From an uncultured Lachnospiraceae bacterium (GTDB lineage: Bacteria; Bacillota; Clostridia; Oscillospirales; CAG-272): 52,937 nt of DNA. Of this stretch, positions 6,744-52,764 are shown in pieces (positions within the stretch are counted from its first letter, which is position 1; every line of letters begins with the position of its first letter). The DNA lies in NCBI GenBank assembly GCA_964456045.1, contig CAYWAD010000001.1, positions 1 through 52,937 of the forward strand. The letters are read 5' to 3'. The position numbers were made by a program, and so were the translations under genes. The notes beneath the pieces were generated by a model, which had not been told where the DNA came from, did no database searches, and saw only the letters and a program-made list of their open reading frames with translations.

Positions 6744-6751
6744 ATGTAACA

Positions 6752-38100: not shown

Positions 38101-38127
38101 AGACAATAACTTATATTTTGTATAATG

Positions 38128-38565
38128 TCAGCGCATTTTTTCTGCTTCGTTTTGAGCAACGGAATCACAACGCTCATTATAAGGATGCCCGGCGTGCCCC
38201 TTGATCCATTCGTAAGTGATAGAATGAATGTCCGCAAGATCGAGCAAACGTTGCCATAAATCCGGATTTAGAGCGGGCGATTTGTCGGATTTTTTCCAGC
38301 CGCGAGACTGCCATCCTTTGGCCCATCCGAGTGACATTGCATCAATGACGTATTTTGAATCGGAAACGAGCTTTACATTGCACGGTTCTTTAAGCGCTTC
38401 GAGAGCTTTTATAACCGCAGTAAGCTCCATTCTATTGTTAGTAGTGCTTTTTTCGCCTCCGGAAATAACTTTTTCTTTAGTTCCGTATACAAGTATGGCA
38501 CACCAACCGCCCGGTCCCGGATTTTGTTTACATGATCCGTCGGTATATAAAACAATATCTTTCAA
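38128..38565 (-). CDS. rnhA: Ribonuclease HI
   Basis: YTDGSC...NNRMEL...SDSKY...W.KGH.G...NE.CD. 145 aa. Confidence 0.9.
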
Positions 38566-38997
38566 TTACTTTATAGATTCCTTAAGAGCTTCGCACCATT
38601 CAACAATATCACGACGTTCCTCGATGGAAAGCTTCTTGTTGAACAAAGAGCCGCCTTCAACAAAGTAAATATTATCTGTAATTACGTTAGCTCCTGCGGC
38701 AGTTACTATGTCGATGAGCTGCTGCATTGCGGGTGTGAGAGTTTTGGTTTTGCTTTCAAAAACGAACGCTACATTCGCGGTTCTTGCTGTGGTAAGCTCG
38801 CCTGCAAAGAGACGAACTTTGTCTTCAAGTTTAGCGCCTGCAGAAACAACCATAACTACAAGACGTTCACGGTCGCAAGAATATGCAGGAGGAATCGCGT
38901 CAGCCTTAGCTCTTGCATCGTCTTGAGCCTCGCCGAGAGCAATCGCATAATTGATTACTTTTTTGTTTGATGTTGCATACAAAATACGCATTTTCAT
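38566..38997 (-). CDS. Hypothetical protein (flavodoxin-fold-like), co-transcribed with rnhA
   Basis: 143 aa from MKMRILYA. GGAGG lies 10 nt upstream. The stop abuts the rnhA start. Confidence 0.55.
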   Translation of the reverse strand: MKMRILYATSNKKVINYAIALGEAQDDARAKADAIPPAYSCDRERLVVMVVSAGAKLEDKVRLFAGELTTARTANVAFVFESKTKTLTPAMQQLIDIVTAAGANVITDNIYFVEGGSLFNKKLSIEERRDIVEWCEALKESIK

Positions 38998-39139
38998 AAT
39001 AAACAAGCCTCCGAAAGTTTGATTTGCGTTCATTATATCACAGAAATTAACGCTTTTCCACTTATTTTAACGAATTTGAAAAAAATATGTGTGAAATTTC
39101 GAATTATACGACCGAATCGCCTCATCAGCACTTCTCTGA

Positions 39140-39167
39140 ATTATACAAAATTTGCATTTTGTATAAT
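39140..39167. repeat. Perfect 28-bp palindromic site (11-6-11 layout) at the left prophage junction, candidate dif-like/attL
   Basis: ATTATACAAAA-TTTGCA-TTTTGTATAAT. Arms pair over 12 bp around the centre TTGC. Its right 17 bp are the direct repeat. Confidence 0.6.
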
Positions 39168-40121
39168 GGGAGATAGAGTTTCCCACTCGAACAAATCGAG
39201 CCATACCGGCGAAATCTTGTCGTGATGAGAACCATATTCGTGTACTGCGTAGAAATCGAATATGTATCGAAGGACTGATTCTGCCGAATAATTTTCAGCG
39301 AACAAAAGATCATAAGGGATTGAACGCTCTTTGCGATGACGAGTTTGAAGCTCGATTCTGATCCAGCTATCCGGCAAAGATCCATCAGATGTATAAGGAC
39401 AAGAATTTAAGTCGTTTTTAGCAATTCGTTCAAGCTTTTTGTCGTAGAAACGAATCATTTGTTGTGAGCTTGTAGTGCCAAAATATATAGTGTGTTCTTT
39501 GTCACCATATTTTACGCGCCAAGAAACACTACGATTTGAACCATGACATATTATATTCGAATTATCAATATGATGTTGTTCGCAAAGATTATGAAGATCT
39601 TCAACAAAAGATCCGGAATAATTTACAAAGTCATAGGCAAAGTCGCAGCGGGTGAAATGGAAATTCCATCCCATATTAGGAATATAGCGAATTTTTTCTT
39701 CAACATCGTATCGCTGAGATCTGAGCCAATCTAAACCAGATCCACACAGATCTATGCGAATCCATGATAAATAGCAGTGCGCGATAAACATAGGGTCATA
39801 ATTTTTAGGATCAGTCACGCGCTGACCATATTCTTTATCAAGTTGCCAGTCAATATCACGAGGTTCAAGCTCAAAGAGAATCCCGTGCAGATTTATGCGG
39901 AGTTTGCGTCCGTAATTAGGATCAGCGAAATAGGAATCGCGGACAGCTGCGAAGAAATCTTCATTCAAACCAATTCCAAAATATTTGAGGATATCGACAA
40001 ACGATTGATCGCGCACAACGATGGTGAGCCAGTCGATTTTATAAAAGACACCGCCCTCACCATTTTCTATTTTGCGCAGAGTGCGATCAGAATATTCATT
40101 ATGTGATTTAACAGAATTCAT
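39141..40121 (-). CDS. Rolling-circle replication initiation protein (Rep_trans family-like), apparently 3'-truncated by the integration junction
   Basis: Motifs FTRCDFAYDF, IRFYDK, RIELQTR typical of replication initiation factor/Rep_trans proteins. ATG 40121 lies 6 nt after GGAGG. The last 3 codons (NFV*) lie left of the repeat. Confidence 0.7.
   Translation of the reverse strand: MNSVKSHNEYSDRTLRKIENGEGGVFYKIDWLTIVVRDQSFVDILKYFGIGLNEDFFAAVRDSYFADPNYGRKLRINLHGILFELEPRDIDWQLDKEYGQRVTDPKNYDPMFIAHCYLSWIRIDLCGSGLDWLRSQRYDVEEKIRYIPNMGWNFHFTRCDFAYDFVNYSGSFVEDLHNLCEQHHIDNSNIICHGSNRSVSWRVKYGDKEHTIYFGTTSSQQMIRFYDKKLERIAKNDLNSCPYTSDGSLPDSWIRIELQTRHRKERSIPYDLLFAENYSAESVLRYIFDFYAVHEYGSHHDKISPVWLDLFEWETLSPIIQNANFV
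39151..39167. repeat. 17-bp direct repeat, left copy (candidate attL core)
   Basis: tttgcattttgtataat is identical to 45692-45708. Confidence 0.65.
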
Positions 40122-40122
40122 A

Positions 40123-40374
40123 TTAAACCTCCGAAGAAGAATTAGAAGCAAGCTTTTTTTCTTGGAAAACACGTGTACGTTCGAGCCAACGACTATAAAA
40201 ATCAAGGTCACGCTTCAAAACTCTGTAGAAACACATCGGAAGCTCGATAAGGGCATAATCATTTTCGTCATATGGAACAAGACTAATTTCACAAGTTTTC
40301 TTAAAAAAGCCATCGTTCATTGGGGAAACCATTCCGTGAGAATCAGTACGCAAGTCATAAATTTTTTTAGACAT
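40123..40374 (-). CDS. Phage hypothetical protein (83 aa) upstream of rep
   Basis: AGAGGTG RBS. The stop lies immediately before the rep ATG. First ORF after the consensus promoter. Confidence 0.5.
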   Translation of the reverse strand: MSKKIYDLRTDSHGMVSPMNDGFFKKTCEISLVPYDENDYALIELPMCFYRVLKRDLDFYSRWLERTRVFQEKKLASNSSSEV

Positions 40375-40468
40375 ATTAAACACCTCTTTTTTTATAGTTG
40401 AAAGCCAAGGAAGTGCAAAGAGGCAAAAAACACTTGGAATAGTGTGCACTTCCCTGCTTTCTATGGAT

Positions 40469-40497
40469 ATTATAGCATATTTTTTTCTAAATTGCAA
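40469..40497 (-). promoter_or_regulatory. Consensus sigma-A-type promoter for the rep operon
   Basis: Minus strand TTGCAA-17 nt-TATAAT (-35 at 40492-40497, -10 at 40469-40474). Downstream, a 9-bp inverted repeat ggaagtgca/tgcacttcc (40409-40417 / 40445-40453). Confidence 0.55.
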
Positions 40498-40578
40498 CAC
40501 TTTTCACAAAAAAAATAAGTGTTTTTGGATATTTTTTTTAAGTAAACAAGGACAATAGAACATCTTCAGAATGCGCGC

Positions 40579-40685
40579 AGGCTCTCCGAGCCTACTACCT
40601 TCCTGACTGGTGATACATTCACAGTCAGGAAAAGAAGCCGGGCTTCGCTCGGATGAACACCCCCCCTTCCCCCCCTCAAGGGGGG
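40579..40685. other. Structured non-coding region of the phage (stacked hairpins), candidate origin/packaging signal
   Basis: Hairpins aggctc-tcc-gagcct (40579-40593), ttcctgactg-12 nt-cagtcaggaa (40600-40631), gaagc-cgg-gcttc (40634-40646), and C7-TT-C7-TCAA-G6 with CCCCCC/GGGGGG pairing (40660-40685). Confidence 0.5.
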
Positions 40686-40695
40686 AAAAAGAAAC

Positions 40696-40771
40696 AATAA
40701 ACCTCGATTGGGATAATAGGGATTTCAAGAGCTTCCCGAAGCCGGTGCAGCATTATTTTCGTTTACAGCGT
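40696..40771. repeat. Inverted duplicate (76 nt, 75/76 identical) of an internal segment of the zot-like gene
   Basis: Reverse complement of 41323-41398, single mismatch at 40762. On the plus strand it encodes INLDWDNRDFKSFPKPVQHYFRLQR. Confidence 0.9.
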
Positions 40772-40998
40772 TTTTAGCTGTTTAAGGTCAAAAAAAATAA
40801 CCGGCTAACAAACCGATTATTTTTTTTATTATATTTGCTTGATAGTCGAAGATTCTTTAGCTACACCAATCAAGCATATCCGGCGGTATTCCGACCGTCG
40901 AAAACTTGCGAAAAAGCGTTTAGAAAGCAAAAAAGCAAAAGGCAGCGTGCTTTTTCTCGTTTCCGGCGGTCGGTGGGATCTATTGATCAAATGGCAGC

Positions 40999-41757
40999 TC
41001 ACTTAGAAAGATCGAGCTTAGCTCGTTCTTGTTGATCTCGATAAGAGCGATTTTTCTTGACCCAGTGAGGGAGAAAAGCGCGGAACGGTGATGATCTATA
41101 CCAGAACAGCCAGCTTTGCTTGACGAAATCATCAGTTAAATTAGCAGTGTCACGCGAATTGTCATTTTGAGGACTAACGACTACCGGCTTTTTTCGATAT
41201 GCTTTACCGGTTATATATACGCGGAAATATTTGCGAATTATAATTAAGTAATCTGCGAGATCGCGAATTTTCTTATCACAATCGTAAGTTTGCGAAAAAG
41301 CTATGTAAATGTGCTTATATTGACGCTGTAAGCGAAAATAATGCTGCACCGGCTTCGGGAAGCTCTTGAAATCCCTATTATCCCAATCGAGGTTTATTTC
41401 ATCGTGCAGTATAACGGAATTTGGTTCAATGAATTCAGGACCAGTATATCCTCTTTCACGAAGTTTTATAATTTTTTTTCGAACATTATCATCATAATAA
41501 GCTTCGGCAAGCCAAGGAAGCAGATTTATATCTATAGGAACGACAAAAGAAAGATCGCAATCGCCTAATTTACAATAAACATTGTAGCCCTTTTCGTTAT
41601 AGTGGGTAGCAAGTTTTTGAAGCATCGTAGACTTTCCCTCGCCTTTCGGAGCAAAAATCAAGTAAAGCTTATAGGGGTTAATATATTTTGATGTAAGTTT
41701 ATTAAAAACAAAACCGATCGAGAAAATCGAGAGGAAAAGAATAAGCAGAATTTTCAT
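40999..41757 (-). CDS. Zot/pI-like P-loop NTPase (filamentous phage assembly protein)
   Basis: N-terminal TM, Walker A APKGEGKST, Walker B VILHDE. 252 aa. Positioned last in the structural/assembly module. Confidence 0.6.
   Translation of the reverse strand: MKILLILFLSIFSIGFVFNKLTSKYINPYKLYLIFAPKGEGKSTMLQKLATHYNEKGYNVYCKLGDCDLSFVVPIDINLLPWLAEAYYDDNVRKKIIKLRERGYTGPEFIEPNSVILHDEINLDWDNRDFKSFPKPVQHYFRLQRQYKHIYIAFSQTYDCDKKIRDLADYLIIIRKYFRVYITGKAYRKKPVVVSPQNDNSRDTANLTDDFVKQSWLFWYRSSPFRAFLPHWVKKNRSYRDQQERAKLDLSK
41323..41398. repeat. Partner of the 76-nt inverted repeat, inside the zot-like CDS
   Basis: See 40696-40771. The spacer between the copies is 551 nt. Confidence 0.9.
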
Positions 41758-41804
41758 ATTTTGCGTTGTTTTTTCGGCACGACATAAAGTCGTGCCGGTA
41801 TGGT

Positions 41805-41978
41805 TTATTTTTTAATGTATACAAGAAGCTTAAAGAGAAAAACGAGGAACAAAGAGAGAGTACAGATAAGAAAAGCGCAAGCTACAAGCGCGAAAAAATC
41901 GTATGTAGAAGCGCGAACAGGTTCAACGCCTATCAGTTCCATTAGAGTATGAGCCAAGCCAGAAGAGAGAATTTTCAT
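41805..41978 (-). CDS. Phage small hydrophobic protein (57 aa)
   Basis: Not in the ORF track (under 60 aa). ATGA overlap with the upstream stop. C-terminal TM FFALVACAFLICTLSLFLVFLF. Confidence 0.45.
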   Translation of the reverse strand: MKILSSGLAHTLMELIGVEPVRASTYDFFALVACAFLICTLSLFLVFLFKLLVYIKK

Positions 41979-42439
41979 AAAAACAACCTCAAAGTCAGAA
42001 CAACAAGAATCACGATAAGGATTAGAACTATAAAGCTGGAAGAATCAATACCCGATCCAGGGATCAAGCCATTTTCGGGAATTAAATGATAGTCAACCCA
42101 TGTGTTATAGGTATATCCGGAGCGAGTATAGCTTTGATAGATCTGAAGCTCACAAAGTGAAGAAAAACGAATATCGTACTCATTAGATCCAATCTTAGCG
42201 TATCCATTAATTACCGAATTAGAAATATTAAAAAGATATCCGGAATCGGTAAGGCATAAGCCATCATAAGAATCTAAATAAAATTCAATATCTCCGGAAA
42301 GCTTAGTGACATCATATGATGAGTTAACATAAGCAATTCTTCCCTGCCAAATATCAACGGTATTTGGATCTACCCATGAACCGAGGCATATAACAACAAT
42401 AAACGTTAAAATCAAAAAAGAGAAAAAATAGAATTTCAC
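41975..42439 (-). CDS. Phage secreted/anchored protein (154 aa), minor coat candidate
   Basis: N-terminal signal/TM and C-terminal TM (FIVLILIVILVVLTL). GTGA overlap with the upstream ORF. Confidence 0.55.
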   Translation of the reverse strand: MKFYFFSFLILTFIVVICLGSWVDPNTVDIWQGRIAYVNSSYDVTKLSGDIEFYLDSYDGLCLTDSGYLFNISNSVINGYAKIGSNEYDIRFSSLCELQIYQSYTRSGYTYNTWVDYHLIPENGLIPGSGIDSSSFIVLILIVILVVLTLRLFL

Positions 42440-42591
42440 TTAGAACCTCGTATGTAAATGATTGAAGTCACTATTATATCAAGCAAAACTAAATATAAGA
42501 AGCATTGAGTAATCCAATGCTCATTAAGCATATTAACATATGCCTTAATATAAGTCAAAGCAGCCGAAAAAACAGAGCTTAGAGAACCCAT
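42436..42591 (-). CDS. Phage small membrane protein (51 aa)
   Basis: GGAGG lies 5 nt before ATG 42591. One TM helix. The longer 92-aa ORF version is rejected. Confidence 0.45.
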   Translation of the reverse strand: MGSLSSVFSAALTYIKAYVNMLNEHWITQCFLYLVLLDIIVTSIIYIRGSK

Positions 42592-42593
42592 AG

Positions 42594-42734
42594 CTACCTC
42601 CGCAGGCATAAGCAAACCATCCAAACAAGGAGAGTTGAATAGAAAAGCACAGAAAAAAAAGTTATCCCCGGGATAATAGTTATATTCAGCATTAACCAGA
42701 TATAATCGACGCAAAGATCAACAAATTCAAGCAT
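42594..42734 (-). CDS. Phage small membrane protein (46 aa)
   Basis: GGAAGGTG RBS 6 nt before ATG 42734. Hydrophobic. Packed between neighbouring ORFs. Confidence 0.4.
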   Translation of the reverse strand: MLEFVDLCVDYIWLMLNITIIPGITFFSVLFYSTLLVWMVCLCLRR

Positions 42735-42739
42735 AGAAA

Positions 42740-42955
42740 TCACCTTCCAAAGCAGCGACAGACGATGACAAGCGTTAAACCACAAATAGCAACTGACGCA
42801 ACGGTAGTAGGCATCCATCCGGACGTGGTTGACCGCGAAATAGACCACAAAGCGGAGGAAAACATAGTGATGCCATTTATGAAACCAACGAGAAGATTCC
42901 ACAAATTGGCAATAACATCAACTATATACTCAAAAAAAGAAACAATAGCATCCAT
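42740..42955 (-). CDS. Phage membrane protein (71 aa), pVI-like position
   Basis: Two hydrophobic segments. Follows the 417-aa ORF, as gVI follows gIII in Ff phages. Confidence 0.5.
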   Translation of the reverse strand: MDAIVSFFEYIVDVIANLWNLLVGFINGITMFSSALWSISRSTTSGWMPTTVASVAICGLTLVIVCRCFGR

Positions 42956-42972
42956 ATAACCCCCAAAGGCTA

Positions 42973-44226
42973 TTAGTCGCCGCTGCGGGATTGGCGAACG
43001 ATAGATCTAATAGGAGCACCGAGCACGATCGCCATCAAGCTAAACGAAAGCGGCACAAAAACAAAAGCTTGTCCCAATGAAGAAGAAATTATCAAATCAT
43101 AGATTTGGCGAAGAAAAGAGACCTGTTCTGTATCAAGTTTAAGCAAATACTGATCAAATGCAGTGAGCGATTCAAACTGAGCCAAGCTAAACGAATCCAA
43201 TGCTTGACGTTGTAATTCGGAATAAGAATCCAAAGCATCGACATCATCATCAGAAATTTGATATTCTTCGGACAAAAGCTTAGAATATTCATTTTCGGCT
43301 TTTGTCAAATAAATATCGAAATAATCTTTGATAATCGCCAACTGAAAATAATTTTCGGCAGTTTTCGAAAGCGACAAATATCGATCATAAAGAGTATCAA
43401 CGACGGCAGCATAAGAGAGAGCGGAAGAATAATCTGCTTTGCTCAAGTCGTATTGAAATTTAGTTCGAATAGTCGAAGCAAACGATTCAATGTCATCGAT
43501 CGAATCATAGATCGAATATGTATATTTTTTTAAGTAATCAAGGTCAACGGAAATTTCATTTTCAAGCAAAGCACAAATATTATCAAGAACCGTTTCAACG
43601 CCTGAGAGATCGACATCAGATCCAGACGGAGCAAAAGCATTGATTCCCATATATGCATACAAACTATATCCAGAACTAGATTGTAAGCTCTCTGGAGCGG
43701 TAAGCTGAATAGCGATCTGTGAGCACTGATTTTCAACGGTTATCGAATAACAAGAAACGTCATAAAAAACAGAATCGATGCTCATAGAACAAGTACCGGA
43801 ATTTCGTCCATAATAGATTTTTTCAGAATCAACATAATAAGTCGAGCCGGAAAAATACATTATAGCGTCAACAGAGTAAGAAGCCGGCAAAAACACATCG
43901 ACGATACCGCCGTAAGGCAAATAAACGTTCAAGCAATAAATCAAACTCGTATATGTGGGAAAAGAAGCAAATCCGCCATGGCAAGTATATGAAGAATCGC
44001 CATATTTGACGGATACTGTTTTTCCGGTGAAATAATTCAAGTAAGAGCTGCTAAATTCATCTAAATTAAAACTATTAAAAGGAGTCACATAAGAATTTCC
44101 AAAATAAGCAAGAGCAATAGTCTGACGGTCATTATAAACGACATATTCAGTCACGGCATAAGCCGGCAGAGAAAAAGAAAGGGCTACGATCAATAAGACA
44201 AATAAAGAAAGTAAACGCTTACACAT
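42973..44226 (-). CDS. Phage adsorption/minor coat protein candidate (pIII-like architecture)
   Basis: Signal peptide MCKRLLSLFVLLIVALSFSLPAYA, large Ser/Tyr-rich ectodomain, C-terminal TM anchor plus basic tail. Largest ORF, directly after the coat module. Confidence 0.55.
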   Translation of the reverse strand: MCKRLLSLFVLLIVALSFSLPAYAVTEYVVYNDRQTIALAYFGNSYVTPFNSFNLDEFSSSYLNYFTGKTVSVKYGDSSYTCHGGFASFPTYTSLIYCLNVYLPYGGIVDVFLPASYSVDAIMYFSGSTYYVDSEKIYYGRNSGTCSMSIDSVFYDVSCYSITVENQCSQIAIQLTAPESLQSSSGYSLYAYMGINAFAPSGSDVDLSGVETVLDNICALLENEISVDLDYLKKYTYSIYDSIDDIESFASTIRTKFQYDLSKADYSSALSYAAVVDTLYDRYLSLSKTAENYFQLAIIKDYFDIYLTKAENEYSKLLSEEYQISDDDVDALDSYSELQRQALDSFSLAQFESLTAFDQYLLKLDTEQVSFLRQIYDLIISSSLGQAFVFVPLSFSLMAIVLGAPIRSIVRQSRSGD

Positions 44227-44227
44227 A

Positions 44228-44353
44228 TCAATAAACCCGGATTATTAATCGAGCACAAAGAGCGATAGCAGCTAAGGCGAATACCGGAGCTGTATACGTA
44301 TACAGCTCCGGAGACGTCCAAAGTTTGAGAAGATCAGACAGAAGCTCTAACAT
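44228..44353 (-). CDS. Phage small protein (41 aa) with a hydrophobic C-terminus
   Basis: Hand-translated as MLELLSDLLKLWTSPELYTYTAPVFALAAIALCARLIIRVY*. The stop lies 1 nt before the pIII-like ATG. Contains the 28-bp palindrome. Confidence 0.35.
   Translation of the reverse strand: MLELLSDLLKLWTSPELYTYTAPVFALAAIALCARLIIRVY
44284..44311. repeat. Perfect 28-bp palindrome downstream of the coat gene
   Basis: ccggagctgtatac|gtatacagctccgg. Confidence 0.9.
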
Positions 44354-44358
44354 AAGTA

Positions 44359-44568
44359 TTAGCCTTTAGAGAGCAAGCGTCCGAATATTCCGACAGCTCC
44401 ACCGAGTACAAGAAAGCCAGTGGTAAGGAGAAGAATAGGAGTCGTCGTTATAGTTTCGGCAACATTCCCAGTCCAAGTAAGAGCCTGTGTTACAACAGTT
44501 CCAAGATCAGTAAGAAGTGATGTCATGGTTACTTCGCCAACAACAGCACCAAAAGCGGAAGTAGGCAT
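44359..44568 (-). CDS. Major coat protein candidate (pVIII-like)
   Basis: 69 aa with an amphipathic/acidic N-terminus, TM PILLLTTGFLVLGGAVGIFG and a basic C-terminus RLLSKG. Confidence 0.6.
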   Translation of the reverse strand: MPTSAFGAVVGEVTMTSLLTDLGTVVTQALTWTGNVAETITTTPILLLTTGFLVLGGAVGIFGRLLSKG

Positions 44569-44631
44569 TTTTTTATCCTTTCTTTTTATTTATTTAAGCG
44601 CAAAGCGCAAAAATATCAATGTCATTAATAT

Positions 44632-44796
44632 TTAATAATCGGCAAACAAAGATTTCAAAAGCGAAGAGATTTTAGAAGAATAGCCCATCACTTCACAAAG
44701 AGTATCAATCTCGCGTTCAGAGAGTTGGTGAGTACCAACGTATGAATAAAGAAATTTTAGAAGCTCAATAAAACCCATTTGTTCAGACGACAACAT
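44632..44796 (-). CDS. Phage small protein (54 aa)
   Basis: Hand-translated as MLSSEQMGFIELLKFLYSYVGTHQLSEREIDTLCEVMGYSSKISSLLKSLFADY*. AAAGGG RBS. Confidence 0.4.
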   Translation of the reverse strand: MLSSEQMGFIELLKFLYSYVGTHQLSEREIDTLCEVMGYSSKISSLLKSLFADY

Positions 44797-44801
44797 GATA
44801 A

Positions 44802-44960
44802 TTACCCTTTCTGTTGAGAAATAAGATAGTTATATGCTTTTTCAACCAATTCGTAAGGAAGATTTCGCACAGAAATAAGCTCAGAAATAACACTATCCTC
44901 AAGAGGAATTTCAGAGCAGAATGCAAGTTGTGCTAAAAAAAAACATTCCAAAATGATCAT
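44802..44960 (-). CDS. Phage small protein (52 aa)
   Basis: ATGA overlap with the stop of the 87-aa ORF. Hand-translated as MIILECFFLAQLAFCSEIPLEDSVISELISVRNLPYELVEKAYNYLISQQKG*. Confidence 0.4.
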   Translation of the reverse strand: MIILECFFLAQLAFCSEIPLEDSVISELISVRNLPYELVEKAYNYLISQQKG

Positions 44961-45220
44961 TTTGAAGAATCCTCAAACAAATCATACGATACAGGATATT
45001 TGTCGACATCGTAGAATACGGTGTCGATGAAGTCACCAAGAGTAAGTTTAGCAGCGCGATTAGACTTGCCAGGACGATTCGGGAAGAAGAATTTGCGAAC
45101 CGCAATTCCCTCTTTAATTTTAGAATCATGATCATAGCAATGAATCGTTATTCCGGATACCTCCCTGTGCGAGTACGTTGCAGCTCGTGCAACAGATTCA
45201 ATTCCAATGATTTCGTACAT
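44957..45220 (-). CDS. Phage 87-aa protein in the gV (ssDNA-binding protein) position
   Basis: First well-supported ORF after the internal promoter. AAAGGAAA RBS. Its size and position match Ff gV. No motif-level support. Confidence 0.45.
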   Translation of the reverse strand: MYEIIGIESVARAATYSHREVSGITIHCYDHDSKIKEGIAVRKFFFPNRPGKSNRAAKLTLGDFIDTVFYDVDKYPVSYDLFEDSSK

Positions 45221-45366
45221 AATTTTGATTTCCTTTCATTTTTTACAAGATTTTTCTGTGACAAAGTTAAAGATAGAAGCAATTGATAATTAAGATCTAA
45301 GGCTTTTTTCAAACGATAATAACGTTGAATTTCTTCAGAAGCTTTACGCATTTTATATTTTTTCAT
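45148..45366 (-). CDS. Possible leaderless small basic ORF (72 aa)
   Basis: ATG 45366 lies 6 nt after the -10 box TATAAT. Overlaps the 87-aa ORF by 73 nt. Weak. Confidence 0.2.
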   Translation of the reverse strand: MKKYKMRKASEEIQRYYRLKKALDLNYQLLLSLTLSQKNLVKNERKSKLCTKSLELNLLHELQRTRTGRYPE

Positions 45367-45372
45367 AATTAT

Positions 45373-45400
45373 ATTATAGCTAATAAAAAGGAACTTCAAA
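45373..45400 (-). promoter_or_regulatory. Sigma-A-type promoter for the phage structural module
   Basis: Minus strand TTTGAA-16 nt-TATAAT (-35 at 45395-45400, -10 at 45373-45378). Confidence 0.45.
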
Positions 45401-45408
45401 CAAAAGCA

Positions 45409-45636
45409 TCATGCTAATTCTTCAAAACCTTTCACAAGATACATAGATTTTTTTTCCGAAAAATATAAATAACGTGGCAGCCCTTCCGAAGCAGCGGTCA
45501 ACGAAAGAAGAATACAGGCGAACCGCCGTCGATCAAGCGGCTGATCAGAGCGCTGCAAATTATACCAATCGCAGACGATGCGATTGAGCATTGCATCGGC
45601 GCCAAGGTTTGAAAGAAGAAAAATATGATTTTTCAA
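45409..45636 (-). CDS. ORF without an SD or ATG start, probably the displaced 3' portion of rep, separated by integration
   Basis: The frame stays open upstream through the right 17-bp repeat (..CQIIQNAKYVETYDVLQANYDFFDRNLKNHIF..). The only start candidate is TTG 45636, with no RBS. Confidence 0.4.
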   Translation of the reverse strand: MKNHIFLLSNLGADAMLNRIVCDWYNLQRSDQPLDRRRFACILLSLTAASEGLPRYLYFSEKKSMYLVKGFEELA

Positions 45637-45691
45637 GTTACGATCAAAAAAATCATAATTAGCCTGAAGAACGTCATAAGTTTCGACGTAC

Positions 45692-45708
45692 TTTGCATTT
45701 TGTATAAT
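45692..45708. repeat. 17-bp direct repeat, right copy (candidate attR core)
   Basis: tttgcattttgtataat is identical to 39151-39167. Confidence 0.65.
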
Positions 45709-45838
45709 TTGACAAACCGCTCCCTGCGCTAACGACTCGATTTCAATTTGATTATAGGATGAGCAAACAAGAGGTTTATTTTTGTTTTTGTTTATGGTAT
45801 ACTTTACTTACAATGAAAATTTAGCATGTGGGTGATTT

Positions 45839-46531
45839 ATGATCAGCGATTTTTATTCAGTCAGTTATCTTCCCATCAGAAAAAACGAATCTATCGACGA
45901 ACTCAACATTATTTCAAGATATTATCGTTCGCACAGAGTTCGCCGCATATTTTTGACGCGCGAATATGATCCGTCTATCACAGTCAAGGCTCACATCGCT
46001 CGCGAATCGCATTATTTCGCTTCCGCACGCAAATCACTGTGTTCTCAAATGCGTTTGATCCCGATACACTCCGTCACCTTATTCAAAGGCATATCAGGCT
46101 TCCCCGATCTCGAACTGCTCGCGCTTAAAACAAAAACCGGCTCATACCTTTACGTAAATGTGCCGTTCGGAATCGACCATGACACGCTTGCTTCCGAGCT
46201 GCATACGATCATTTACAAGAAAAAGCTGATACCGGTGTTCATTTCCATCGAAACTTTGCAACAGATATGCTCAGAACAAGTGTTCGATACTATTTTGTCC
46301 GTTCCGAATGCTGTTTATCAAATTTCGTTAAATCACGTTATAAACAACAAATCTGTCGATAAGCTTCTCAAGCGTCTTTTGAAAGAAAAGAAAAACGTCA
46401 TTTTCGGCAGCGGCGACGGATTTGACGCATGCCCATATAAAAACATTGAATTTTACCTCAAATACATAAAGAAAGCTGTAGGCAAAGACATATTCGGCTA
46501 TTTTTTGATTCGTCATAACCGAATGTTTTGA
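45839..46531 (+). CDS. Hypothetical protein with CpsB/YwqE-like (PHP tyrosine phosphatase) layout but substituted metal-binding histidines
   Basis: By-eye collinearity with CpsB. MIDIHSH becomes MISDFYS, HIERY becomes SIETL, ASDMH becomes GSGDGFD. Confidence 0.35.
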   Translation: MISDFYSVSYLPIRKNESIDELNIISRYYRSHRVRRIFLTREYDPSITVKAHIARESHYFASARKSLCSQMRLIPIHSVTLFKGISGFPDLELLALKTKTGSYLYVNVPFGIDHDTLASELHTIIYKKKLIPVFISIETLQQICSEQVFDTILSVPNAVYQISLNHVINNKSVDKLLKRLLKEKKNVIFGSGDGFDACPYKNIEFYLKYIKKAVGKDIFGYFLIRHNRMF

Positions 46532-46537
46532 TGCAAA

Positions 46538-46786
46538 TCAGATTCCTTTGTATTTTTGGCGTGTTGCTTTCCCTCCTCGTATATGCCTTTCGGCTTTATT
46601 AATGTCAAGCACGATCCTCGTTTCGTGCGCCAACGTCGGATTTATCCGTATAAGCCGTTCCGTCACATCTTTATGTACCGTACTTTTGCTTACTCCGAAC
46701 TTTTTTGCTGCATTTCTTACCGTTGCACCGCTTGATGCGATATATTCACCGAGCAAAACAGCGCGCTCATCGACTAAGGTTTTCAC
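46538..46786 (-). CDS. spoIIID: Sporulation transcriptional regulator SpoIIID
   Basis: ERAVLLGEYIASSGATVRNAAKKFGVSKSTVHKDVTERL..INP.LA..........HIRGG.AT. GTG 46786 lies 7 nt after GGAGG. 82 aa. Confidence 0.85.
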   Translation of the reverse strand: MKTLVDERAVLLGEYIASSGATVRNAAKKFGVSKSTVHKDVTERLIRINPTLAHETRIVLDINKAERHIRGGKATRQKYKGI

Positions 46787-46901
46787 ATATAATCCTCCGC
46801 AAATGCTTTTGACTAATAATATGACGAAAACCGTAAATTTAGTCGTGATCCGTTCACTTGTAAAACAAAAAACATCACAACTCAAAAGAAAGAGAAACAT
46901 T

Positions 46902-47669
46902 ATGCAAGAAAAATATCTTCCGTCAAACATTTTCGAAGGGTTGACTTCCATACGCGCCGTAATTGCGTCACGCGATTCGGGCGTTTCTTCACGCGAAATA
47001 AAGGAAATCCATTACGACACCGAAAAGCTCGAAAAACACAAAAAAGAAATCGCATGGCTTTCGAGAATGTCCGCAAAACATGGATTTAAGCTCATACCGA
47101 CCACATCCGAAAGCATTTCGGAACTGACTCTCGGAACAACTCACGGCGGTTTTGTTGCCGTTTGCGGAGAAAGAAACATACCGGCGCTTAAGCTTGACTG
47201 CATAAAACCGAACGGTTATTACATTATGCTTGACGGAATCGAGGATCCGTACAATTTCGGCACAGCATTACGCACGGTTTACGCTTCCGGCGCGGACGGT
47301 ATTGTTCTTCCGCCGCGAAATTGGATGTCGTCTGCAGGGATAGTGTGCCGTTCTTCGGCAGGTACATCGGAAACGGCGAATTTGTTCGTTTCGGACGCGG
47401 ACTGCGCCGTGGACATATTCCGCAACGCAGGATATAAGATCATTTGCTCGGCGAAAGAAAAATCAACTTCCATGTACAAAACGGACTTGACCTTCCCTGT
47501 TTTTCTCGTAATCGGCGGGGAACGCAGAGGAATCGCGCATCGAATTCTCGATAAAGCCGATGAGATTGTCCGCATCGACTACGGACGCGAATTCAATGCT
47601 TCTCTTTCGGCGCAGTCGTCCGCGGCTGTCCTCGCTTTCGAAGTTTACAGGCAAAACAACGTGAAATAA
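46902..47669 (+). CDS. TrmH/SpoU-family RNA 2'-O-methyltransferase (RlmB-like)
   Basis: DGIEDPYNFG, LVIGGERRGI, SLSAQSSAAVLAFE. The start is set at MQEKY. The upstream part of the 373-aa ORF is antisense to spoIIID. Confidence 0.8.
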   Translation: MQEKYLPSNIFEGLTSIRAVIASRDSGVSSREIKEIHYDTEKLEKHKKEIAWLSRMSAKHGFKLIPTTSESISELTLGTTHGGFVAVCGERNIPALKLDCIKPNGYYIMLDGIEDPYNFGTALRTVYASGADGIVLPPRNWMSSAGIVCRSSAGTSETANLFVSDADCAVDIFRNAGYKIICSAKEKSTSMYKTDLTFPVFLVIGGERRGIAHRILDKADEIVRIDYGREFNASLSAQSSAAVLAFEVYRQNNVK

Positions 47670-47706
47670 AAAGGCTCCGAGACGGAGCAAAAAATAACAT
47701 TTTCAA

Positions 47707-47751
47707 CAAAATACGGTGTAACTCTGTAAAATGGGTTACACCGTATTTTTT
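47707..47751. terminator. Bidirectional intrinsic terminator
   Basis: atacggtgtaac / gttacaccgtat 12-bp stem with A/T-run flanks. Confidence 0.65.
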
Positions 47752-47772
47752 AGCATTATGTACTTGGAATTA

Positions 47773-48696
47773 TCATTTCAAGAGGTTTAGAATCTCAATA
47801 TCGCTTATGCCGGTAGCCTCCAAAAAGGATTCAAGATCACTGTAACTGTTGCAGAAAACCTTTGTTCCTTTCATACATGTGGATACATGTATCCAAACAA
47901 ATACGGATTCGCTTTGCGGTTTGAACGGCGTAGGCGCTGTCACCCAATCAAAATTCTCAGGTCCGATTACATACTGAACACCCACTTGTAATTTTTGCGT
48001 TCCTAAATCGTCGAGATGTACAAATCCGAGACACCCTTTGCCTGGTTTGCGTTTGATTGTGGCATATACCATGTCGTTTATCTGTATTTGAGCAAAATTC
48101 AACAATTCAGATGAGTAGCTTTTAGCTTTCGGCTCGTTGGGTGTGTCACTATACGTTGCTATTTCGCGTGTAGCATACAAAAAAACATACCCTGTGGAGA
48201 CGGATTCGCTCAATTCGGCAAGTTGCAATTTCCGCAAATCCCTGTCTATGTCATCAATTTGGGAATTGATTCTACTTATGGCAGAGTTGATTGAAGCTGC
48301 GGCTTTATCGAAATCGGCAAGTGCCAAATCAGAAGCTCTCTTTTCATCGTTAAATTGTTTTGCGCGAGATGAGACTACACAACCGATAATAATAAGAGCA
48401 ATGCCGACCAATGCAACAATAATGCCCGGCAGCAAATTATCATTTGAAATTATGAAAATTAAAATTGCCGCAATTACAGCACAAACAATACCTATAGTTC
48501 GCAATGTGGAACCTTTCTTTTTTTGAGCCGCGATTTTTCCTTCAATAGTGCGACGTACGGCAAGCTTATCTGCGCTTCCTTTTTCCAGTTCGTACAATTT
48601 TTCTTCCTCTGCGTACAAATCAGATTTTAAATCATTTTTGTTTTTGAGATACGCTTGGCGTTTCAGTTCATATTTCTGAGATAATTCATTAGACAT
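47773..48696 (-). CDS. Hypothetical membrane protein (coiled-coil N-terminus, 2 TM, unknown C-terminal domain)
   Basis: 307 aa, no recognisable motif. Divergent from the XRE gene. Confidence 0.7.
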   Translation of the reverse strand: MSNELSQKYELKRQAYLKNKNDLKSDLYAEEEKLYELEKGSADKLAVRRTIEGKIAAQKKKGSTLRTIGIVCAVIAAILIFIISNDNLLPGIIVALVGIALIIIGCVVSSRAKQFNDEKRASDLALADFDKAAASINSAISRINSQIDDIDRDLRKLQLAELSESVSTGYVFLYATREIATYSDTPNEPKAKSYSSELLNFAQIQINDMVYATIKRKPGKGCLGFVHLDDLGTQKLQVGVQYVIGPENFDWVTAPTPFKPQSESVFVWIHVSTCMKGTKVFCNSYSDLESFLEATGISDIEILNLLK

Positions 48697-48815
48697 AAGA
48701 GAATCCTCCTATAAATATTTGATGCTTATATTATAACCTGATTCAGGTTAGATGTCAATGGTATCGAGCAAAATATTTTATACTGTATGACAGTATTTTT
48801 TAGGGGGAAAAGCAA

Positions 48816-49031
48816 ATGTATCAAAGAATTCGCAATTTGCGGGAAGATCGTGATTTGAACCAAACACAGGTTGCAAAAATGCTTGGAATGTCACAAACAG
48901 GTTACTCTAAATATGAAACCGGCGAAAACGATATTCCTACCACAATTTTGATAAAATTAGCCAGATTCTATAATACCAGCATTGATTATTTACTCGGAGA
49001 AACCGACGAGAAAAAACGTTATCCGAAATAA
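48816..49031 (+). CDS. XRE-family helix-turn-helix transcriptional regulator
   Basis: IRNLREDRDLNQTQVAKMLGMSQTGYSKYETGENDIPTTILIKLARFYNTSIDYLLG is a canonical Cro/C1-type HTH. Confidence 0.85.
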   Translation: MYQRIRNLREDRDLNQTQVAKMLGMSQTGYSKYETGENDIPTTILIKLARFYNTSIDYLLGETDEKKRYPK

Positions 49032-49036
49032 AAAAA

Positions 49037-49059
49037 GGCTCCGAAACGGAGCCTTTTTT
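49037..49059 (+). terminator. Intrinsic terminator
   Basis: ggctccg-aaa-cggagcc followed by T6. Confidence 0.75.
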
Positions 49060-49112
49060 CGCACATACAAAACAAAAAAACGGACGCAAACCGAAGTCTG
49101 CATCCGTTATAG

Positions 49113-49187
49113 GGTGAATGATGGGATTCGAACCCACGGCCTTCAGGGCCACAACCTGACGCTCTAACCAACTGAGCTACACCCACC
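49113..49187 (-). tRNA. tRNA-His (anticodon GTG)
   Basis: Hand-folded cloverleaf. G-1 is present and pairs with C73. Anticodon loop ttGTGgc, T-loop ttcgaat. CCA is not encoded. Confidence 0.85.
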
Positions 49188-49193
49188 GAAAAA

Positions 49194-49267
49194 CGTACCT
49201 GGGGGGACTCGAACCCACGACCTACTGCTTAGAAGGCAGTTGCTCTATCCAGCTGAGCTACAGGTAC
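49194..49267 (-). tRNA. tRNA-Arg (anticodon TCT)
   Basis: Acceptor gtacctg/caggtac, D-arm gctc..gagc, anticodon loop ctTCTaa, T-loop ttcgagt (one T:C mismatch in the T-stem). Confidence 0.8.
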
Positions 49268-49276
49268 ATATAAAAA

Positions 49277-49348
49277 AGCGGGTGATGGGAATCGAACCCA
49301 CGTATCCAGCTTGGAAGGCTGGCGTACTAGCCGTTGTACTACACCCGC
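49277..49348 (-). tRNA. tRNA-Gly (anticodon TCC)
   Basis: Acceptor gcgggtg/cacccgc, anticodon loop ctTCCaa, T-loop ttcgatt. Confidence 0.85.
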
Positions 49349-49527
49349 AAAACGCGCGGTCATTTTTGAACGCTCAACTATAATACCACAATATTTTTTT
49401 TTTGTCAATAGTCAAATTGAAGATTTTTTCGTATAAATTTAATTTTTGAAAAAATTATTATGATTGACGTATAAAGTTTCAATTGATATAATGTAGCTAT
49501 AATATCTCCTTTCAAGAGGTGAAGGAT

Positions 49528-52500
49528 ATGCTTTATAAAAAGAACAAAGATGCTGTGCTTTCGGATGCGCTTTTCAAAAATCCGACGTCGGAATACAGAG
49601 GAACTCCGTTTTGGAGTTGGAACTGTGAGCTTGACAGCGAGGAGCTTAAGCGTCAGATAGACTGCCTTAAGGAAATGGGCTTCGGCGGTTATCACATGCA
49701 CTGCCGTACCGGTATGGCAACGCCGTATTTGACGGAAGAATTTTTCTCGCTCGTCTCGGATTGCGTCGAAAAAGGCAAAGAAAACGGTATGCTTTCCTGG
49801 CTCTACGACGAGGACAGATGGCCGTCCGGCTCGGCAGGCGGACGTGTTACGAGAAACGCCCCCGAACTGCGTCAGAGATATATGACAGTCGAGGAACAAC
49901 TGCCTGACGGACTTTCCGATCGCGATTCAGCCGTCAAAGAAGGCGGCTCGTATTTGATTGCGGCGTTTGATGTTGTGAAAAGCGAGATCGGCGAGCTTAT
50001 TTCGTATAAAAAAACTGTTCCGTCGGCGGCTCCTGCCGAAGGTTCCGAGCGCATATATTTCGTTTGCCATTCTGTCGGTGCGTCGCCTTGGTATAACGGC
50101 TCGTATTATATCGACACATTGAACCCCGACGCGGCAAAAGAGTTTTTGCGCGTTACATATGATGCCTATAAGGATCATTTCGGCAAGGATTTCGGAGACG
50201 CGATCCCTGCCATCTTCACAGATGAGCCGCAATTTGCGACAAAACGCCCACTTCCGTTTTCCGTCGGTGCGGTAAGAGCTTCGTTTCCTTGGACGCCCCG
50301 ATTCCCCGAAGTATTCCTCGAAAAATACGGCTACGACATTGTGGAGCGTTTGCCTGAAATCATATATGAGCTTCCGAACAGCGCGCCCTCGCACGCACGT
50401 TACGCTTTTCACGATAACATCGCGGAGATGTTCGCACACGGCTATAACGATCAATGCGGAAAATGGTGCGAGGAAAACGGAATCTACTTCACGGGACATC
50501 TGATGGAGGAGCCTACGCTCGAAAGTCAAACTCATGCCGTCGGTGACGCCATGAGATGCTACAGAAGCATGCAGCTTCCGGGAATTGATATGCTTTGCGA
50601 CAGAGTTGAGCTTACGACGGCTAAGCAAACTCAGTCTGCGGTGCATCAGTACGGTCGCGAGGGTATGACATCCGAGCTGTACGGCGTTACAAACTGGGAT
50701 TTCGACTTTCGCGGTCACAAGTTCCAGGGCGACTGGCAGGCGGCACTCGGCGTAACCGTGCGCGTTCCGCATCTTTCGTGGGTATCTATGCAGGGAGATG
50801 CCAAGCGCGACTACCCTGCCTCGATCAATTATCAGTCGCCTTGGTATAAGGAATACAGCTATGTTGAAGATCATTTCGCAAGAATCAACACGGCGCTCAC
50901 TCGCGGAAAACCGCTCGTTAAAGTTGCGGTTGTGCATCCCGTTGAAAGCTACTGGCTGCGATTCGGCCCCAACGATCTTACCGCCGACGCAAAGGCTCAG
51001 CTTGAAGAAAACTTCGCGAATATTACCTCCTGGCTTATTTCCGGGCTTATTGACTTCGATTTCATTTGCGAATCAACGCTTCCCGATCAGGTGCTTTATT
51101 CCGAAAACGGTCTGCAAGTAGGCTGTATGAACTACGAGACAATCATAATTCCCGCCTGTGAGACGTTGCGCTCATCCACCGTTGACATACTCACCGACTT
51201 CGCAAATCGCGGAGGAAAGCTAATTTTTGTCGGTGATTCGCCGTCTTACATTGATGCCGCACCGAGCGATCGCATAAATGACTTTTCCAAGCTCGGAAAG
51301 CACATTTCATTTTCGAAAACGGCGGTACTTCGTTCGCTTGCGGACGAACGCGACATCATCGTTAAAAATTACAACGGCACAAGCGCGGACAACTTCGTTT
51401 ATGCAATGAGAGGAGACAATGGCTGCAAATGGCTGTTCCTCGCTCACACAAACAAGAATTATTGCCTTGACGTTTCGCATCCGCAGTGGATTTCCTTAAA
51501 AATAAAGGGCGAATATACACCGAAACTGTACGACACACTTTCGGGCGAAATAAAAAACGTCGATTGCTCGTACGAAAACGGTTGGACCGTTATCGACACG
51601 GTACTTTATATGTATGATTCGCTTCTGCTTCGCTTGGACGAGGGGGAAATTTCACAAGAAAATGCGAAAAATAACCGCAAGCAATATCTGACTTTGAAGC
51701 AGATCGATTACAGAATGCCGGTGGACTATTCCCTCTCCGAGCCGAACGTACTGCTTTTGGACATTGCTCGTTACGCTGCGGACGGTCAGCCGTATTCCGA
51801 GGTTGAAGACGAAATTTTGCGTGCGGAAAACATCATCCGCAATTCGGTCGGTCTCGGCAACAGGATCAGTCGTCCCGTTCAGCCTTACATGATCGAAAAG
51901 ACATCTCCGTCCCACAAAATCAGATTGAAATATACCGTATATTCCGAAATCGAATATGAGGGCGCGCTTCTTGCAACGGAAACTCCCGAACTTGCCGATA
52001 TTTCATTTAACGGTGAGTCGGTAGACAAGACGGAACAAGGATATTTCACGGATAAATCGATCAAAACCATCGCACTTCCGACGATAAACATCGGCGTTAA
52101 TACGCTTGAAATAACACTTCCTCTCGGCGAAAGAACCGCGACGGAATGGTGTTATATTCTCGGAGATTTCGGTGTTAAAATCGAAGGAACGAAGAAGACG
52201 ATAATACCCAAAACGGAAAAGCTCGGTTTCGGTTCTGTAACTACGGCGGGAATGCCGTTTTATTCCGGAAATATAGAATATATTCTACCGTTTGAAGTTA
52301 CCGAGCAATGTAAAGGTTCGGTAAAGGTCAACGGATATAGAGGTGCTGCGGTAAGAGTGACACTTGACGATGAAAAGAGCGGAATAATCGCGTATGAGCC
52401 TTATAATTTCGATTTGGGCAAGCTTTCTCCAGGTATGCACACATTGAAGCTCACGCTTTACGGAACACGTCACAACAGCTTCGCGGCACTTCACGATGCA

Positions 52501-52626: not shown

Positions 52627-52764
52627 ATTCACATTAACAAAAGACCTTGGCTTACTTGCCGAAAAGCAGGTTTGCCAAGGTTTTTGATTAAAATACGATA
52701 ATCTCTGCAAGTACAATTGCTATATTAATATGCTACAATTCAAACACAGAAAGGAGTCGGTTTT

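Follow-up and report, generated by a model that had tools for sequence, protein, structure and literature searches.

The prophage and its attachment sites

The window (the whole 52,937-nt stretch of DNA that was analyzed) derives from an uncultured spore-forming Clostridia bacterium and carries an inovirus-like prophage of 6,541 bp (~6.5 kb) at 39151–45708. The prophage is bounded by a 17-bp direct repeat (ATTATACAAAATGCAAA on the minus strand; TTTGCATTTTGTATAAT as given for the copies at 39151–39167 and 45692–45708), which has exactly two matches even with two mismatches permitted, versus 0.02 expected from shuffled sequences. Phage genes all lie on one strand and run in the order rep, small coat-like genes, a large adsorption-like gene, and an ATPase. 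A truncated rep of 326 codons (39141–40121, minus strand; ATG at 40121, stop at 39143–39141) encodes a Rep_trans catalytic domain and follows a small upstream ORF (40123–40500, minus strand) with a promoter-like TTGCAA-17-TATAAT element containing TG at 40497–40469. The putative 252-aa Zot/pI-like P-loop assembly ATPase (40999–41757, minus strand) gave only weak P-loop matches in a profile search and resembles a protein of the related phage L129 (E = 3e-7); the Zot proteins of L129 and a further relative, L127, exceed the Pfam Zot cut-off. A 76-nt piece of this gene (41323–41398) recurs as an intergenic inverted copy at 40696–40771, with 99% complementarity, and the related contigs L001 and L002 terminate inside this inverted repeat. 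The structural/morphogenesis block (41975–44568, same strand as rep) contains ORFs of 154, 92, 71, 417, and 69 aa, the shortest of which encodes what looks like a major coat protein, and L001, L002, and L132 share this gene order. When the phage is circular, the gene that comes next after rep is an 87-aa ORF (44957–45220, minus strand). The original prediction located a structural promoter directly downstream of the rebuilt rep, and a consensus scan from 45409 to 45220 found no promoter-like site there. Searches of the prophage ORFs against Pfam and PHROGs, whose sensitivity for small ORFs is limited, gave no hit to an integrase, transposase, or serine recombinase.

On one side, the prophage adjoins a host gene encoding 143–155 aa (38566–39033, minus strand) followed by RNase HI (38128–38565); the other flank (45839–47669) holds a 230-aa ORF, SpoIIID (46538–46801, minus strand), and a SpoU-type methyltransferase (46548–47669, plus strand). 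Empty sites show this second flank with unchanged synteny.

The left copy of the core (39151–39167, minus strand) consists of an 11-bp arm and a 6-bp center and codes for I319–A323 plus the first two nucleotides of codon 324. It forms part of the phage-to-host junction (39140–39167), a full 28-bp palindrome of the host type (ATTATACAAAA-TGCAAA-TTTTGTATAAT in the minus-strand reading) that represents a restored attB/dif-like site; the same palindrome is rebuilt at the equivalent junction of the related prophages L003, L004, and L005. The host-to-phage junction (45681–45708, minus strand) is a hybrid 28-bp site in which the core at 45692–45708 is joined to a degenerate phage arm, GTACGTCGAAA, and its sequence is that of attP. 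Identity between attP and the host palindrome is confined to 17 bp (one 11-bp arm and the 6-bp center), and the second arm of attP matches the host arm at 5–7 of 11 positions. An 18-nt complement of the core at 45556–45573, 120 nt downstream, was set aside: it is explained by the conserved coding of C-D-W-Y-N-L and is at chance level among the repeats listed.

A replication initiator gene divided at the core

In the prophage, Rep ends with S-P-I-I-Q-N-A followed by N-F-V-stop, the last three codons and the stop being supplied by the host arm. The right-hand copy of the 17 bp keeps this frame (C-Q-I-I-Q-N-A, then K-Y-V-E-T-Y-D), which remains open until the stop at 45411–45409, as originally predicted. 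This orphan segment (45409–45691, minus strand; codons K324–A417 plus stop) has neither ATG nor GTG of its own, and the prediction was also right that its sole start codon is the TTG at 45636. Since rep is cut after codon 323, joining the repeats fuses codons 1–323 to the orphan segment, as had been proposed, but the sizes needed revision: the rebuilt protein has exactly 417 aa rather than about 420, with 94 rather than 97 codons following the repeat's final complete codon, and exceeds the 326-aa product of the prophage by 91 rather than 97 aa.

Neither of the two outcomes named beforehand as refuting the prediction was observed. Rep homologs do not stop at the equivalent of residue 326: 31 of 33 span 382–473 aa and align through the junction. 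The segment at 45409–45691 was found only as the C-terminus of full-length Rep, never as a separate homolog with a start of its own. Intact 417-aa homologs share 79–80% identity at 100% coverage, and the contigs encoding them are arranged as rep, structural genes, and Zot-like gene, a circular permutation of the prophage. Circular contigs L127 (5,213 bp) and L129 (5,530 bp), which have 30-nt terminal overlaps, likewise carry intact rep. A sister phage was recovered both integrated with a split rep (L003/L132) and as an attP junction with an intact rep (L002). L002 matches prophage L003 at 99.6% identity and connects both ends of that prophage through one core, and the L003 Rep rebuilt across the repeats is identical to the intact protein (P0002) at 416 of 417 positions. 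Public assemblies contain all four att forms of this sister phage (attB in L133/L136/L139, attP in L002, and attR plus attL in L132/L135), with flanks that are exchanged reciprocally and are identical over 45 nt. The intact homologs and the occurrence of the sister phage in both states bear out the central prediction that integration splits rep and that the circular form holds the full-length gene.

The integrated phages L004, L005, and L007 encode Reps that are only ~30% identical, yet these are split at the same point, and the Reps of all integrated relatives end in IIQNANFV and a stop. The exact 17-mer was present in every intact rep examined, including that of L127, where it is read in another frame (L-Y-K-M-Q), indicating that what is conserved is the DNA. 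Synonymous change was zero within the core, versus pS of ~0.7 around it. Outside these contigs, we found no Rep relatives among 50,697 deposited phage genomes and only distant ones (L114–L125) in a scan of IMG/VR, and a search of sequencing runs with the junction and the phage body returned no matching run. These sequences show that the prophage has its 17-bp att site within its own Rep_trans initiator gene (codons 319–324 of 417).

Domain architecture of Rep

Rep matched Pfam PF02486 (Rep_trans) at 65.7 bits (cut-off 29.6) over residues 155–312, and Foldseek aligned residues 1–323 with 4CIJ (E = 3.6e-11, TM 0.67). Residues R224, Y226, D227, and K228 are invariant across Reps, with RiYDKK aligned to RIYNKK of RepDE. 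Residues 1–320 resemble RepSTK1 (4CIJ), RepDE (4CWC), and pT181-type RepC/RepD in both fold and R-x-Y-[DN]-K motif; the C-terminal helical domain of 94 aa that integration takes away here has no counterpart in these plasmid proteins. Residues 1–323 hold the whole Rep_trans fold, which weakens the original idea of a replication on/off switch, and the 326-aa Rep of the prophage could still nick DNA.

The orphan C-terminal segment has a dN/dS of ~0.12 relative to L002, indicating purifying selection. Folded alone, it is modeled as four helices and a beta-hairpin (pLDDT 91), and a search of PDB folds with it gave no match (best E-value 2.3). It is thus predicted to be a separate helical domain, with the cut at the domain boundary: the interdomain linker (residues 323–330) coincides with the cut.

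The split could be real but have no regulatory meaning, with the 326-aa Rep competent, the C-terminal domain accessory, and the att site placed in rep owing to scarce non-coding space in a 5–6 kb genome. The presence of the complete fold and the invariant motif upstream of the cut fits this explanation, as do the size of plasmid Rep_trans initiators of solved structure (only ~270 aa) and the lack of a structural relative for the C-terminal domain. However, the domain is kept in all 31 full-length homologs and is under purifying selection, the cut falls exactly at the linker, and the host arm provides a stop after three codons in each integrated copy. We consider a split devoid of regulatory meaning rather unlikely, while the proposal that full Rep activity, and hence rolling-circle replication, is confined to excised circles stands at about even chances.

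The host site as a candidate dif

The host target is a single-copy, perfect 28-bp palindrome (11 + 6 + 11). The same 28-mer occurs once in the window and marks empty sites in metagenome contigs, with a single occurrence per contig in 104 contigs, the longer of them reaching ~200 kb in some cases. The 7-mer AGGGAAG is strongly polarized around it, with 152 occurrences pointing toward the site and 6 away when both sides are counted (z = 11.6, first among 14,454 7-mers). Within 500 bp of the site its orientation reverses; the polarity holds to the left in 47 of 49 loci and to the right in 33 of 35, and the window itself conforms. AGGGAAG behaves like the skewed FtsK/SpoIIIE-orienting motifs that converge on dif, and we infer that it may be read by FtsK. 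The flanks, by contrast, show weak GC skew (+0.038 on the left, where 81% of loci are positive, and +0.007 on the right; longest contig 309 kb), and crude ORF-strand bias gave no clear signal. No linked Xer gene was found (of 129 flanking ORFs, 2 encode recombinases), and neither was an RNA family in an Rfam scan, a matching Clostridia site among published dif predictions (Kono 2011 supplement), or a match to the sequence in a full-text literature search.

The design of attP is also informative. The attP of TLCphi (Vibrio cholerae) and that of the gonococcal genetic island (GGI) match one recombinase-binding arm plus the whole dif center, with a divergent other arm (PMC5357621). The same design is found here (17 bp = 11 + 6), though the sites of those unrelated elements are non-coding, while the present one lies in rep and its host site is a perfect palindrome. 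The host site further resembles difH of XerH (Helicobacter, Campylobacter) and difSL of XerS in having near-identical arms that end in AAAA/TTTT around a 6-bp center (ACAAAA-TGCAAA-TTTTGT versus TTGAAAA-CTATAA-TTTTCAA for difH); it differs in arm sequence, and no linked xer gene was found. Together these features suggest that the host site is probably the chromosomal dif, acted on by a host Xer-type tyrosine recombinase, and that the phage is an integrative element exploiting Xer (IMEX) of the TLCphi/GGI type.

Alternatively, the palindrome could act as promoter or operator for the coaX/ECF-transporter region and serve as attB for another host recombinase. In many genomes it lies upstream of coaX (median 23 nt), each arm carries an extended -10 motif (TGTATAAT), and synteny with SpoU, SpoIIID, CoaX, and the ECF S-component is conserved. 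Against this, the AGGGAAG flip is independent of gene orientation, which is a signature of dif, and an attP of one arm plus center fits Xer-exploiting elements. The polarity thus demotes a pure promoter/operator to a minor and improbable alternative, though the two roles may coexist in one sequence.

Rep_trans plasmids of the pT181 type have their origin inside rep, which raises the question of whether Rep itself integrates and excises the phage, with the 17-mer as its nick site (origin) and the host palindrome as a pseudo-origin hairpin. A 12-bp hairpin is possible at the host site, and no phage-encoded recombinase was found. The phage site, however, lacks a second arm, no conserved hairpin surrounds it in eight family members, the shared identity covers precisely one 11-bp arm together with the 6-bp spacer (the geometry of tyrosine recombinases), and the exchange is reciprocal and conservative, all of which make integration by Rep very improbable. 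Folding of eight attP DNAs gave no common structure, so neither a CTXphi-type folded single-stranded attP nor a hairpin origin for Rep at the core was retained as the main model. Chance frame agreement (1 in 3 for the frame alone, a caveat raised with the original prediction), prophage decay that left a truncated pseudogene, or chimeric assembly can be dismissed as negligible given the same split in independent assemblies and distant relatives, the intact counterparts, and purifying selection on the orphan segment.

A model for integration and its consequences

The sequences show that the phage circle inserts by reciprocal site-specific recombination within the core, rebuilding the full palindrome at 39140–39167 and keeping the attP sequence at the other junction. 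Integration cuts rep at the domain boundary, leaving a 326-aa catalytic domain with a host-encoded N-F-V-stop and stranding the 94-codon C-terminal domain, which lacks a start codon, at a distance of 6.5 kb; the 417-aa gene is restored by excision and at any attP junction. In the model that we favor, the host site is dif; since both 28-bp sites are unaltered by integration, the reaction should reverse without a directionality factor.

A comparable arrangement exists in the fusellovirus SSV1, where attP lies in a viral gene that is partitioned on integration and rebuilt by excision. The two cases share an attP-bearing viral gene that is divided in the integrated state and whole after excision, but the gene partitioned in SSV1 is the integrase, and the virus is an archaeal dsDNA virus that targets a tRNA gene. 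Among filamentous phages, the Xanthomonas inoviruses XacF1 and Cf are integrase-less and insert at host dif by XerC/D; the attP of XacF1 is within a coding region that is split by integration, with integration and excision in equilibrium (PMC5666396). The present prophage is likewise a filamentous-type phage in which no integrase was found and whose attP lies in a split coding region, but the gene divided in XacF1 is ORF12, which putatively encodes a regulator or an immunity determinant, rather than the replication initiator, and the dif of its proteobacterial host is a canonical XerCD site. The inoviruses of the Lachnospiraceae genera Enterocloster and Hungatella are 6.5–8.5 kb gut Clostridia prophages with direct-repeat flanks and secreted circles (PMC10061712). 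They resemble our prophage in host group and direct repeats, but their Reps lack the IQNA and YDKK motifs, and neither a split rep nor dif targeting has been reported for them.

Taken as a whole, the palindrome and polar AGGGAAG may constitute an undescribed dif/KOPS-type system of uncultured gut and rumen Clostridia, probably with a single XerH-like recombinase, which this inovirus family exploits through an attP in rep such that loss of the Rep domain licenses autonomous rolling-circle replication only after excision; we offer this full scenario tentatively. As a further element, the truncated Rep might serve as an inhibitor that binds the origin and so confers superinfection immunity.

The frame-independent, family-wide conservation of the 17-mer shows that a site of DNA recombination has shaped a coding sequence. 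The phage also reveals a candidate dif and a KOPS-like AGGGAAG in Clostridia lineages without a defined dif, making the chromosome-dimer-resolution system of these bacteria directly testable. If the model is true, this would be the first case found of a filamentous phage replication initiator that is dismantled by integration and rebuilt by excision; replication competence would be physically tied to the episomal state, which would explain how a single-copy prophage escapes Rep-driven nicking of the chromosome.

Integration splits rep in the window

The 17-bp direct repeat that bounds the prophage (the core) is present as exact copies at 39151-39167 and 45692-45708, the only two in the window with two or fewer mismatches, against 0.02 expected from shuffles; the repeat is not due to chance. 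In its prophage form, rep runs on the minus strand from an ATG at 40121 to a stop at 39143-39141, encoding 326 aa that end in ..LSPIIQNA, from the phage, and NFV before the stop. An orphan rep C-terminal frame, also on the minus strand, extends from the right-end core (..CQIIQNA, then KYVETYD..) to a stop at 45411-45409. As the original prediction held, both copies of the core are read in the same frame, which stays open to 45411-45409, and TTG 45636 is the only start codon in the orphan frame after the upstream stop. The fusion that it proposed also stands, though its size (about 97 aa longer, giving about 420 aa) needs correction: joining rep codons 1-323 to the orphan segment adds 94 codons past the repeat, a net gain of 91 aa, and gives 417 aa.

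The prophage has a G+C content of 0.37-0.39 versus 0.42-0.50 in its flanks (window 39100-45700). Three tandem tRNA genes (49113-49348, minus strand) lie 3.4 kb away and are not used as attachment site. The window also contains a 76-nt, 99% complementary inverted repeat (40696-40771 and 41323-41398), in which a piece of the Zot-like gene recurs, inverted, in an intergenic region; the related phage contigs L001 and L002 terminate within this repeat. It would form a long hairpin in single-stranded DNA and could act as a packaging signal or as a minus-strand origin.

Integrated, circular and empty states in relatives

Querying 5.8 billion proteins with the rejoined sequence of 417 aa returned two proteins of exactly 417 aa (P0001 and P0002; 79-80% identity, 100% coverage), along with the window's own 326-aa product and 30 more distant relatives. 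Between the truncated and rebuilt lengths, which the original prediction had proposed to compare, it is the long form that is conserved: 31 of 33 homologs are 382-473 aa long, and all long homologs align across the junction and about 90-100 residues further. The contigs encoding P0001 and P0002 (L001, 5.4 kb; L002, 6.0 kb) carry rep (417 aa), ORFs of 86-89, 67-69, 430, 71, 51 and 152-156 aa and the Zot-like gene, an order that is a circular permutation of the window prophage. In blastn alignments, window 40127-39147 corresponds to L001 392-1372 and window 45709-44960 to L001 1351-2100, placing the breakpoint at the core.

When one genome per species was scanned, members of the Rep family turned up in MAGs of Clostridia, Lachnospiraceae and Eubacteriales. 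In five of the seven hits, alignment to the query broke off near residue 326 (at 326 in four; at 339 in L005, its extra 13 residues being a weak alignment beyond the core). The identical 17-mer occurs twice in direct orientation in L003, L004 and L005 (6,082, 4,779 and 5,023 bp apart), whose Reps share 83%, 31% and 29% identity with that of the window. Rejoining their rep halves gives 417, 410 and 412 aa, respectively, and the rebuilt proteins align over their full length with intact ones in the database; that of L003 is identical to P0002 at 416 of 417 residues. L002 and the L003 prophage, which represent a sister phage, are 99.6% identical in DNA. Because L002 1-1560 and 1540-5973 match L003 in swapped order (9412-10971 and 4869-9302), L002 reads from the prophage right end through one core to the left end.

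Looking up the host gene adjoining the site led to contigs that a single study had assembled from sister samples, comprising empty attB (L133, L136 and L139), attP (L002), and attR and attL (L132 and L135). The 45-nt flanks of the four forms are identical in an exactly reciprocal pattern, and three further contigs end at the core, as expected where att forms coexist in a sample. Two other contigs with intact rep (L127 and L129) are circular, with 30-nt terminal overlaps. The replicative-form junction, proposed earlier as a target for sequencing, was thus found in public contigs for the sister phage, with rep intact. Together, these contigs show that recombination takes place within the 17-bp core and is conservative and reciprocal; circles regain an intact rep, and one of the two junctions regains the host palindrome.

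The attachment site and its recombination

The sequence ATTATACAAAATGCAAA is exact in all seven intact rep genes whose DNA was examined, while mutual identity of the encoded proteins is as low as about 25-30%. It encodes I-I-Q-N-A in six of the seven; in L127 it is read in a different frame, as L-Y-K-M-Q. Synonymous differences among the window, L001 and L002 approach saturation on either side of the core (pS 0.64-0.88) and are zero in codons 319-323. These comparisons indicate that it is the DNA, not the peptide, that is conserved in the core.

The host site is a perfect palindrome, ATTATACAAAA-TGCAAA-TTTTGTATAAT, found as an exact 28-mer once per contig in 104 of 104 metagenome contigs. A Rep gene abuts it in two of these, the others being empty sites with diverse flanks. 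The core comprises the left arm and 6-bp centre of the palindrome and is followed by TTTTGTATAAT at all phage-to-host junctions; phage right arms are degenerate, matching the host arm at 5-7 of 11 positions. The attachment sites of TLCphi and GGI have this design, with arm and centre shared and the other arm degenerate (PMC5357621). The AAAA-N6-TTTT layout of difH likewise resembles the host palindrome. No recombinase was recognisable among the prophage ORFs using Pfam and PHROGs, and a host Xer-type recombinase is likely to carry out integration. Since the 28-bp sequences of attR/attL equal those of attP/attB, the reaction should be intrinsically reversible; reversible integration has been reported for XacF1 (PMC5666396).

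Several variant sites were also observed. A related prophage in L006 has the palindrome ACTGTACAAAA-TCTAAA-TTTTATATAGT (10859-10886) and a Rep ending in ..VQNLNFI; the right arm of the palindrome is repeated 1.3 kb downstream (12194-12209), perhaps the trace of a tandem satellite or a remnant. The L007 palindrome has the variant centre TACAAA. The sister phage carries a second core-like 17-mer, ATTATACAAAATGCGTA (15/17; L002 1887-1903, L003 5216-5232), where the next gene starts, 343 nt downstream of the true core. The window phage lacks this 17-mer, which might serve as a secondary att site or be a pseudo-site. An exact 12-nt arm, ATTATACAAAAT, at window 38108-38127 (minus strand), 1 kb from the junction and just beyond RNase HI, may be a chance match or the relic of a half-site.

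Loss of a Rep domain upon integration

Pfam Rep_trans covers residues 155-312 of Rep, and the family profile matches the solved initiators RepSTK1 (4CIJ) and RepDE (4CWC); the match to RepSTK1 stops about 16 residues short of the RepSTK1 C-terminus, shortly before the position of IIQNA. The AlphaFold model of P0002 (pLDDT 83.9) has a beta-rich domain reaching to a strand at 320-322, a lower-confidence linker (323-330), then four helices and a beta-hairpin. Foldseek matches were to the N-domain only (4CIJ, E 3.6e-11). Folded alone, the window's orphan segment reached pLDDT 91.3, and no structural relative was found in the PDB. In the rep frame, this segment is under purifying selection (dN/dS 0.12; pN 0.22 versus pS 0.71); because it is constrained without a chromosomal start codon, selection must act on the fused gene. 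The host arm TTTTGTATAA supplies N-F-V-stop in every integrated copy. Models and alignments indicate that the cut is a clean loss of a clade-specific C-terminal domain at a domain boundary. This loss might disable or alter Rep, so that rolling-circle replication would depend on excision, a proposal we regard as evenly balanced; the catalytic fold, however, is intact after the cut.

Is the host palindrome dif?

GC skew around the host site is weak. The deciding evidence came from a search for strand-skewed words in which the asymmetric centre of the site served to orient 90 non-redundant loci. It ranked AGGGAAG first of 14,454 7-mers (z = 11.6), with 152 copies pointing toward the site and 6 away. 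Its top:bottom strand counts are 94:2 in the left flank and 2:53 in the right, the direction switches within 500 bp of the site, and the polarity holds in 47 of 49 loci on the left and 33 of 35 on the right. The window shows the same polarity, with AGGGAA at 22:3 on the plus strand over 1-39120 and 0:3 right of the prophage. At dif, KOPS/SRS are typified by G-rich polar words that converge (PMC5357621), and because such words converge on attB we consider it probable that attB is dif. Gene context had suggested a promoter or operator: in many loci the palindrome is about 23 nt upstream of coaX, which precedes an ECF S-component gene, and the opposite flank holds SpoU and SpoIIID. The polarity of AGGGAAG is independent of gene orientation. 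AGGGAAG (and AGGGAA) is a candidate FtsK/SpoIIIE-orienting motif of this Clostridia clade. Inside four prophages, the motif lies 7:0 on the rep strand, toward the restored full palindrome, a small count confounded by coding-strand purine bias.

AGGGAAG converges on the palindrome in the window (1-39120 and 45709-52937) and in loci L004, L133 and L010-L113. In L010-L113, one AGGGAAG on the top strand, 2-3 nt right of the palindrome, is conserved (consensus site + T.AGGGAAG..aaA), its window counterpart being the variant AGAGAAG (39131-39137, minus strand). This copy faces away from the site, unlike all others on the right side, and could give the symmetric site its directionality or be the coaX ribosome-binding/transcript-start region. 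The neighbourhood across these loci, from many uncultured Clostridia, reads SpoU methyltransferase, SpoIIID, site, type III pantothenate kinase (CoaX) and ECF-transporter S component, and a 143-aa uncharacterised protein often adjoins the site, as in the window.

Relation to known systems

Viral integration of SSV1 splits its integrase gene, which holds attP. In XacF1, Xer-mediated integration splits ORF12 (PMC5666396). A phage ORF split by Xer-mediated integration thus has a precedent; the gene split in the window phage is, in contrast to ORF12 and the SSV1 integrase, a replication initiator, and we found no literature report of a split initiator. Nor did we find reports of this att sequence (full-text search for the sequence), literature reports of integrative elements exploiting Xer (IMEX) in Clostridia, or relatives of the window Rep among 50,697 deposited phage genomes; described Enterocloster inoviruses (PMC10061712) have a different Rep. 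The candidate dif site and KOPS-like motif, a side result of this analysis, may be its more novel part.
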